A DNA stretch of 64,000 nt, taken from the NCBI GenBank assembly GCA_046292385.1, contig JBKBRF010000020.1:45495-109494 (forward strand). The letters run 5' to 3'. Within the stretch, counting starts at the first letter, position 1; each line of letters begins with the position of its first letter. The translations under genes were made by a program, and so were the position numbers. Positions 24,532 to 24,634 of the stretch are shown here, piece after piece. This DNA is from Armatimonadota bacterium (lineage in GTDB: Bacteria; Armatimonadota; SYMT01). Below the pieces are notes generated by a model. The model made no database searches. It saw only the letters and a list, made by a program, of their open reading frames with translations, and had not been told where the DNA came from.

Positions 24532-24634
24532 TCGCCAGCGAGCAGGAGCAAGAGTAGGAGCAAGAGCAGGCCCCCCCATACACGGAGGGTTCGGCTTTAG
24601 CCTTTAGCCTTCTGCCTTTAGCCTTTAGGATCCC
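24532..24634. repeat. conserved motif family E, copy 1: TCGCCAGCGAGCAGGAGCAAGAGTAGGAGCAAGAGCAGGCCCCCCCATACACGGAGGG followed by (CTTTAGC)n and CCCTCAT repeats
   Basis: Related copy at 62651-62740; both lie immediately 3' of minus-strand gene stops. Confidence 0.5.

Follow-up and report, generated by a model that had tools for sequence, protein, structure and literature searches.

The intergenic regions in the genome of this uncultured Armatimonadota bacterium harbour a motif of 46–58 nt, with fixed ends and three to five internal hexamers, which is best read as one module of intergenic repeated DNA rather than as a dedicated regulatory RNA. Two clear copies were found in the window, i.e. the whole 64-kb stretch of DNA that was analysed (G+C content 69%). 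The motif probably represents one module, and the conserved core, of an interspersed repeat that is non-coding and specific to this lineage, and that would have been spread or shuffled through a process akin to transposition or recombination.

Two motif copies in gaps between convergent genes

A search of the window with the pattern TCGCCAGCGAGCA-(GAGCAR)n-CAGGnCCnCCCnTnCACGGAGGG reveals two matches, both on the plus strand, at 24532-24589 (copy A) and 62651-62696 (copy B). The copies are in direct orientation at a distance of 38,119 nt. Allowing up to three mismatches, the left half of the motif (TCGCCAGCGAGCARGAGCAAGAG) matches solely at 24532 and 62651, and the right half (GAGCAAGAGCAGGNCCNCCCNTNCACGGAGGG) solely at 24558 and 62665; none of 100 shuffled sequences contains a match to either half at this stringency. 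Copies A and B are identical at 41 of 46 aligned positions (89%), with 22 of 23 positions agreeing on the left side and 19 of 23 on the right. The alignment contains one 12-nt gap, which corresponds to exactly two GAGCAR units that are extra in copy A. The similarity starts abruptly at TCGCC and ends equally abruptly at GGAGGG, and the sequences on either side cannot be aligned. Loci A and B both match, base for base, independent Logan short-read contigs (sample SRR31360857). The motif of about 50 nt that a preliminary description had reported at 24532 and 62651 is thus borne out by the pattern search, the identity of the copies and the lack of matches in shuffled sequence. The features of both loci, and those of the related element described below, are listed in Table 1.

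Table 1. Positions of the motif copies, associated repeats and neighbouring genes in the window.
Feature	Position	Strand	Remarks
Complete hairpin element C	20100..20295	+	196 nt; MFE -103 kcal/mol, z = -8.95
Diverged third copy, TGGCCTCTG-(GAGAAR)5-GGATCTCCGAAGTGCGGTAGGTTCGG	20199..20265	+	Apical part and 3' arm of element C
Short-chain dehydrogenase gene	22840..23655	+	Convergent partner of the EamA gene
Module X, hairpin GCCGGCAG-TCAA-CTGCCGGC	24421..24464	+	44 nt; repeat family common to both gaps
Motif copy A	24532..24589	+	nhmmer E = 7.8e-20
Copy A, left anchor TCGCCAGCGAGCA	24532-24544	+	
Copy A, GAGCAR hexamer array	24540-24570	+	About 5 units
Copy A, right core CAGGCCCCCCCATACACGGAGGG	24567-24589	+	
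Heptamer arrays after copy A, (CTTTAGC)4.9 then (ATCCCTC)2.4	24595..24646	+	Start 5 nt after copy A
(CTTTAGC)4.9 array	24595-24628	+	
(ATCCCTC)2.4 array	24630-24646	+	Overlaps last codons and stop of the EamA gene
EamA-family transporter gene (PF00892)	24635..25543	-	Stop 24635-24637; abuts arrays after copy A
GFO/IDH/MocA oxidoreductase gene	61043..62347	+	Tat-like N-terminus; convergent partner at locus B
Module X, inverted copy	62422..62465	-	89% complementary to 24421-24464
Module Y, third repeat family	62563..62640	+	Ends 10 nt before copy B
Motif copy B	62651..62696	+	nhmmer E = 1.4e-12
Copy B, parts		+	Left anchor as in copy A; about 3 hexamers; right core CAGGACCTCCCGTCCACGGAGGG
C-rich heptamer-like array after copy B (CCCTAAA/CCCTAAC/CCCTGGA...)	62711..62755	+	
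156-aa hypothetical protein gene	62756..63226	-	No Pfam family; stop 62756-62758; abuts arrays after copy B

Both copies reside in gaps between convergent genes, which measure 979 nt at locus A and 408 nt at locus B, and both lie in one orientation 45–60 nt downstream of a minus-strand stop. As had been described, heptamer repeats follow each copy within 20 nt (after 5 nt at locus A and 14 nt at locus B, where a CTAAACC-like unit is repeated 3.3 times at 62711-62733), and a minus-strand stop comes next. The array at 62711-62755 is G-rich on the sense strand of the minus-strand gene and begins directly after the stop of that gene. The association with heptamers and minus-strand gene ends reflects a genome-wide habit, however, and does not distinguish the motif. 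Of 40 genes in the window whose 140-nt 3' flanks were listed in sense orientation, about 10 have short arrays rich in purines or G immediately behind the stop. Such arrays begin 0–20 nt after the stops at 24635, 62756, 15557, 20101, 11805 and 3597, and a further array, at 15249-15295, immediately precedes a minus-strand start and is on the non-coding strand. At least seven different array units occur within the 64 kb, with no dominant consensus unit.

Some local features of the two gaps deserve description. The heptamer array 24630-24646 (GAGGGAT on the coding strand) extends over the final codons and the stop of the EamA gene (...DDEG*), so that slippage in this array would alter or extend the C-terminus of the protein. 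At locus B, the complement of the array 62711-62733 reads TTTAGGG/TTAGGG, the telomere units of plants and vertebrates. This likeness is most likely a coincidence, since only about three units are present and several other G-rich heptamers are found nearby. The left 500 nt of the locus A gap (23656-24160) contain neither a repeat module nor an Rfam hit, and two 88-aa ORFs tested in this region have no Pfam match.

A hairpin element related to the motif and a mosaic of further modules

A profile built from copies A and B (nhmmer) gives one further match in the window, which is marginal (20205-20263, E = 0.08). In addition, BLAST links copy A over 88 nt to the same region, which is occupied by the hairpin element C, perfect-looking over its 196 nt. 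The arms of this element read (AGGGATG)n-AATTCCGAACC... and ...GGTTCGGATTC-(ATCCCTC)n. In a four-way alignment, the right half of the motif, together with the following TTCGG and heptamers, aligns with both arms of element C; the reverse complement of the left arm agrees with copy A at 19 of 26 positions, following the pattern GG..CCCCC.T.C.C.GAGG(G)TTCGG. The hexamer arrays correspond as well, with GAGCAA in the motif and GAGAAA in element C. Because the right half of the motif aligns with both arms, copies A and B each appear to be one arm of a hairpin-forming interspersed repeat, the complete form of which would be an inverted doublet. The partner arms expected for copies A and B on this basis, (GCTAAAG)n-CCGAACC... 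and (TTTAGGG)n..., do not occur in the window, and the whole intergenic regions A and B fold only weakly better than shuffled sequences (z -1.3 to -2.2).

The two gaps share more than the motif. Module X is positioned 68–111 nt upstream of copy A and, inverted, 186–229 nt upstream of copy B. The partial similarity that had been noticed 60–120 nt upstream of the motif is thus explained by module X near copy A, but at locus B the module lies farther away and in the opposite direction; the similarity looks direct because the core of the module is a palindrome. Module Y, which precedes copy B, has an inverted twin of about 100 nt at 21602-21699, with 92% identity over 37 nt and 72% over 40 nt. The inverted module X shared by loci A and B, and the module Y shared by locus B and 21602-21699, indicate that these gaps were assembled from reusable modules. 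Two larger repeat families also recur in the window, one at 3353-3528 and 15332-15478 and the other at 32183-32424 and 44390-44632.

Evidence for further motif copies comes from the ends of short-read contigs. In de Bruijn assemblies contig ends mark branch points, which are expected at multi-copy sequences. The Logan contigs of SRR31360857 are identical to the window, and those that end in it are L014, L001 and L010. L010 stops precisely at 62651, where copy B begins, and the other ends are situated at 24610, in the heptamer array, at 24190, 26 nt into the octamer array of locus A, and at 21629, inside module Y. All four intergenic contig ends are therefore located in, or at the edge of, repeat modules. 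Given that copy A differs from copy B within the first 30 nt, the contig end at 62651 implies at least one further sequence in the sample that has this stretch in common with copy B but a different flank. These observations suggest that further copies of the motif exist elsewhere in the genome, their number being deduced from contig breaks rather than from a count. In the window the marginal third copy is such an addition, and beyond it the break at 62651 is indirect evidence of another.

The third copy and the contig break at the first base of the motif also exclude a chance similarity, which the preliminary description had offered as the alternative in the form of a chance duplication. It is true that the motif has a hexamer array at its centre and that such arrays are common in the window, so that a resemblance arising from low-complexity purine repeats could be imagined. 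However, the anchors are non-repetitive, agree at 13 of 13 and 19 of 23 positions, and occur in the same order and spacing in both copies. No shuffle reproduces either half, and a chance origin can be regarded as refuted.

Hairpins and tandem arrays occur in several intergenic regions of the window. In four intergenic hairpins, which fold far better than shuffled sequences, inverted tandem arrays make up the arms: 10055-10165 (units GCAGGTT/AACCTGC), 11812-12005 (GGGGATAA/TATCCCCC), 15244-15556 (GCCAGGG/CCCTGAC) and 20100-20295 (AGGGATG/TCATCCC), with z values of -7.5, -4.1, -5.6 and -8.95, respectively. Every unit of the hairpin at 15244-15556 pairs through a G-U wobble when read on the sense (minus) strand (z = -6.85), where the plus strand has a C-A mismatch instead (z = -2.9). 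Raw folding energies favour the transcribed strand in all four co-directional cases among the hairpin elements, but after normalisation with dinucleotide shuffles this strand bias is gone, except for 15244-15556. The strand comparison thus gives no consistent support for an action of the hairpin elements at the RNA level.

Other elements are built along related lines. A nested-hairpin family comprises 32128-32601 and 44380-44693, and an element of similar build is present in a relative (15343-15526 of locus L012). The family has the termini TTCACCGC.../...GCGGTGAA, arms with purine-rich arrays of 8–10-nt units, and CGGGGCCGCWGTACGG..CTCGT (5 copies) as its conserved core, with z values of -7 to -10. 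An element shared by 3330-3596 and 15300-15556 (3353-3410 with 15332-15389 and 3472-3528 with 15424-15478, 79–84% identical) contains the hairpin GCCTGCTGAAGCAGGC and terminates in a pyrimidine array beside a minus-strand stop (z about -6). The gap of copy A contains a perfect octamer array, (GAGACGGA)15, at 24165-24285, with 100% unit identity. A degenerate inverted relative is found at 3556-3590, adjoining another minus-strand stop, and the 10-mer ACGGAGGGCG ends both the octamer array and copy B.

RNA, coding and integration as alternative explanations

Rfam searches of the whole window at gathering thresholds yield only a tRNA, and permissive scans of loci A and B return sub-threshold noise only. 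The tRNA gene (17372-17443) adjoins a minus-strand gene at 17515-18315, which shows a 15-nt periodicity over about 350 nt, as is usual in genes for pentapeptide-repeat proteins. No sigma-70-like promoter or intrinsic terminator was detected on either strand of the regions 23600-24700 and 62300-62800, and the combination of a GC-rich stem of at least 5 bp with a U-run, which defines intrinsic terminators, is present at neither locus. Windows of 121 nt around copies A and B fold no better than shuffled sequences on either strand (z +0.05 to +1.45), and the stem that these copies could form comprises only 5–6 bp. The consensus fold of the three sequences is weak (-8 to -9 kcal/mol), and its covariation term is positive, i.e. 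penalising, on both strands. With no covariation, shuffle-like folding and no Rfam match, nothing supports a structured RNA, such as the possibly structured cis-element implied by the preliminary description.

The main rival to the repeat reading holds that the motif is a 3'-UTR element of the minus-strand genes, with a role in 3'-end formation, exonuclease protection or protein binding. We consider this unlikely, although several features would fit it. In the minus-strand RNA the stop would be followed by G-rich heptamers, a small hairpin (CCCUCC-loop-GGGRGG) and a CU-rich (CUCUUG)n tract, and the two copies share their orientation and their distance to a minus-strand stop, an agreement which could reflect function beyond a mere preference of insertion and as such counts against a mere repeat. 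Moreover, the one difference in the stem is a U-G pair (A) versus a U-A pair (B) on the minus strand, compared with a C-A mismatch (A) versus a T-A pair (B) on the plus strand, while two of the three remaining core differences fall in the loop. However, a single wobble pair provides no statistical evidence, and the shortness of the stem, the absence of a terminator in the regions searched and the shuffle-like folding all argue against such a role. Other genes in the window possess long canonical terminators (21535-21575, 3262-3305 and 8160-8195). In addition, the diverged copy C is oriented the other way with respect to its upstream gene, which likewise counts against this reading.

On the plus strand, the motif could belong to a non-coding RNA, acting either as a purine- and GGA-rich sponge for a CsrA-type protein or as an antisense RNA to the 3' ends of the minus-strand genes. 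The region 24165-24600 contains 29 GGA triplets on the plus strand versus 3 on the minus strand. The (GAGACGGA)15 array accounts for fifteen of them and the loops of CGCCCYGGAGGGGCG hairpins for three, and the plus strand of the segment 24286-24634 gives a somewhat better fold than the minus strand (z = -2.5 versus -0.8). However, neither a promoter or terminator consensus nor an Rfam match of the CsrB/RsmZ type was found, the GGA enrichment outside the array is modest (14 observed versus about 8 expected), and locus B has no GGA strand bias. To our knowledge, no CsrA gene is known for this organism. Overall, a plus-strand RNA of this kind is improbable. Three small hairpins are present at 24300-24492, formed by CGCCCCGGAGGGGCG and GCCCTGGAGGGGCGG (the latter twice, identical over 16 nt), with GGA in the loop; by analogy, the GGA-loop hairpins and the octamer array at locus A are reminiscent of CsrA-sponge RNAs, a resemblance without support from Rfam.

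A short shared coding region was considered for the small plus-strand ORFs 24112-24600 and 62524-62721, and rejected. One and the same frame is open through both copies, but in this frame all four core differences change the encoded amino acid, while the adjacent frame, in which three of the four differences fall at third codon positions, contains no ORF. In their upstream parts the two ORFs bear no relation to each other, one of them crosses an array with an 8-nt period, and the Logan gene caller predicted no gene at these positions. A coding function is thus highly improbable.

Two direct copies that share one orientation at a distance of 38,119 nt might also recall attL/attR-type repeats left by the integration of a 38-kb element spanning 24.5–62.7 kb. 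Yet the interval encodes RecA, RecX, RNase Y, CoaBC, MutL and pyruvate dehydrogenase, and the surrounding genes are of a housekeeping nature, RF3 being a further example, with no integrase among them. Furthermore, 5 mismatches and a 12-nt length difference separate the copies, module X has opposite orientations at the two loci, and a third related copy is located outside the interval. The integration scenario is effectively refuted.

Distribution, known repeat classes and a model of the complete unit

Searches beyond the window gave no convincing motif copies in the collections scanned. The pattern TCGCCAGCGAGCAN{12,42}CACGGAGGG has four matches in a genome contig collection to which the source genome does not belong; these are attributable to chance and consist of coding-looking sequences from unrelated phyla without the hexamers. 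A two-gap pattern has two matches in a metagenome scan, both on the reverse strand of coding sequence for leucine-rich signal peptides. A scan of a viral collection gave 0 matches, and blastn against plasmids gave one weak match in coding sequence. The nearest homologue of the EamA protein is 59–61% identical and not syntenic, and the relatives identified by MutL form a clade at 65–72% identity. Three loci of relatives (57 kb in total, MutL 67–71% identical) contain no copy of the motif and few arrays. The motif itself thus appears to be species-specific. One relative (GCA_016307145.1, locus L012) contains a hairpin at 15343-15526, TTCACCGCCAAGA-(CGCCAAGAG)n ... TCTTGGCGGTTCAA, which resembles the 32128-32601 family in its build; its z values are -3.1 (plus strand) and -7.8 (minus strand). 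The occurrence of such a similarly built hairpin implies that the general architecture is older than this genome.

Cyanobacterial STRR heptamers are related to the heptamer repeats of Xanthomonas and Nostoc, and the arrays that flank the motif belong to this known class of heptamer repeats at ORF ends, with a unit that varies by locus. The Xanthomonas and Nostoc repeats, GGGAATC and GGGGAYT, contain a G-tract and form tandem arrays of about 3–7 units, typically about 4 (Rehm et al. 2015, PMC4692102). On the coding strand they are found downstream of the stop, within 50 bp of it, as single arrays or as convergent inverted pairs with the capacity to form stem-loops, and no function is known for them (PMC4692102). 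The arrays in the window are similarly placed beside stops, and some are paired (10074/10128, 11824/11974, 15249/15516 and 20109/20262). A G-tract is found, reading the minus strand, in (GAGGGAT)2.4 at 24630-24646 and in the GGGTTTA/GGGTTAG-type units at 62711-62755, whereas the (CTTTAGC)4.9 and GCAGGTT units lack a G3 tract. Unlike the heptamers described by Rehm et al., which follow one genome-wide consensus, the arrays in the window change their unit from locus to locus and are joined to longer conserved modules. The similarity is limited to the flanking arrays; the 50-nt motif itself is not a simple sequence repeat of this type.

The relation between element C and the single copies resembles that between the forms of REP sequences. 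These short extragenic sequences replicate as REPINs, hairpin-forming inverted doublets, and also exist as singlets, which decay (Bertels and Rainey 2011, PMC3116915). Element C would correspond to the doublet and copies A and B to singlets, an analogy drawn from three members. In contrast to the REP unit, which is an imperfect palindrome, the motif is not palindromic, and the arms of the element described here include hypervariable tandem arrays. REP sequences and REPINs are associated with a RAYT (Y1 transposase) gene and number tens to hundreds of copies. No RAYT or other transposase was detected among the roughly 35 window proteins scanned.

The modular build of the motif finds parallels elsewhere. 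The BIME mosaics of E. coli are modular intergenic repeats, as are BOX elements. The BOX elements of Streptococcus pneumoniae, which are 100–300 nt long, combine conserved ends with variable internal subunits (Croucher et al. 2011, PMC3049150). They occur mixed with other repeat families, are co-transcribed with their neighbours and are thought to be parasitic rather than to serve the host (PMC3049150). The motif likewise has identical ends and a variable number of internal units (5 versus 3 hexamers), a likeness of architecture without sequence homology; it differs from BOX in being far shorter and in that no stable structure is predicted for copies A and B. Element C is also similar to MITEs, as it is small, non-coding, intergenic and hairpin-forming. 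In copies A and B, however, the ends TCGCCAGCGA... and ...CACGGAGGG are not complementary, and a comparison of the flanks GGGGC/TTCGG (A) and ATCGG/CGCAG (B) reveals no target-site duplication. The lack of terminal inverted repeats and target duplications at A and B, and of a transposase in the window, weighs against the repeat reading, for which two good copies were inspected.

Taken together, we consider the motif likely to be a selfish or neutral repeat module. The genome appears to pack its intergenic spaces with a mosaic of modules X and Y, the two larger families and the motif, with tandem arrays set against the gene ends. One side of the complete unit would consist of a G-rich heptamer array, CCGAACC and an inner arm. 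The other side would comprise a purine hexamer array, the inner arm with the pattern given above for the left arm of element C and copy A, and a C-rich heptamer array, such that both sides can fold into one long hairpin. Copies A and B would carry the second half alone, i.e. left anchor, hexamers, inner arm and heptamers, comparable to REP singlets as opposed to REPIN doublets, or to the single heptamer repeats of Xanthomonas as opposed to inverted pairs. In this model the transposition- or recombination-like process would act on the individual modules, and the numbers of hexamers and heptamers would change by replication slippage. Any effect on neighbouring genes would probably be passive, the repeats simply being part of 3' untranslated regions.

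A more far-reaching proposal can be put forward tentatively, with a considerably lower probability. The motif might be the conserved inner-arm and recognition module of an undescribed class of intergenic elements in one Armatimonadota lineage, acting at the level of RNA or single-stranded DNA. Members of this class would be long hairpins placed against gene ends, with hypervariable tandem arrays as outer arms, in which the unit is locus-specific and the arms are always complementary. Such elements could conceivably serve as insulators, as 3'-end stabilisers, or as substrates of a mobilising enzyme that recognises CCGAACC/GGTTCGG and the CACGGAGGG core.

Considered alone, the motif is one more lineage-specific interspersed repeat among the many known in bacteria and matters little. 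Its value lies in pointing to intergenic regions that are unusually rich in repeats, in a phylum that has been little studied. Repeats of this kind fragment short-read assemblies of this organism, can pass for regulatory RNAs and may influence the 3' ends of mRNAs. Should the array-armed hairpins turn out to form one coherent family, whether mobile or functional, the heptamer phenomenon of Xanthomonas and cyanobacteria would reach another phylum, and the natural covariation between their arms would offer a means to test for selection on structure.
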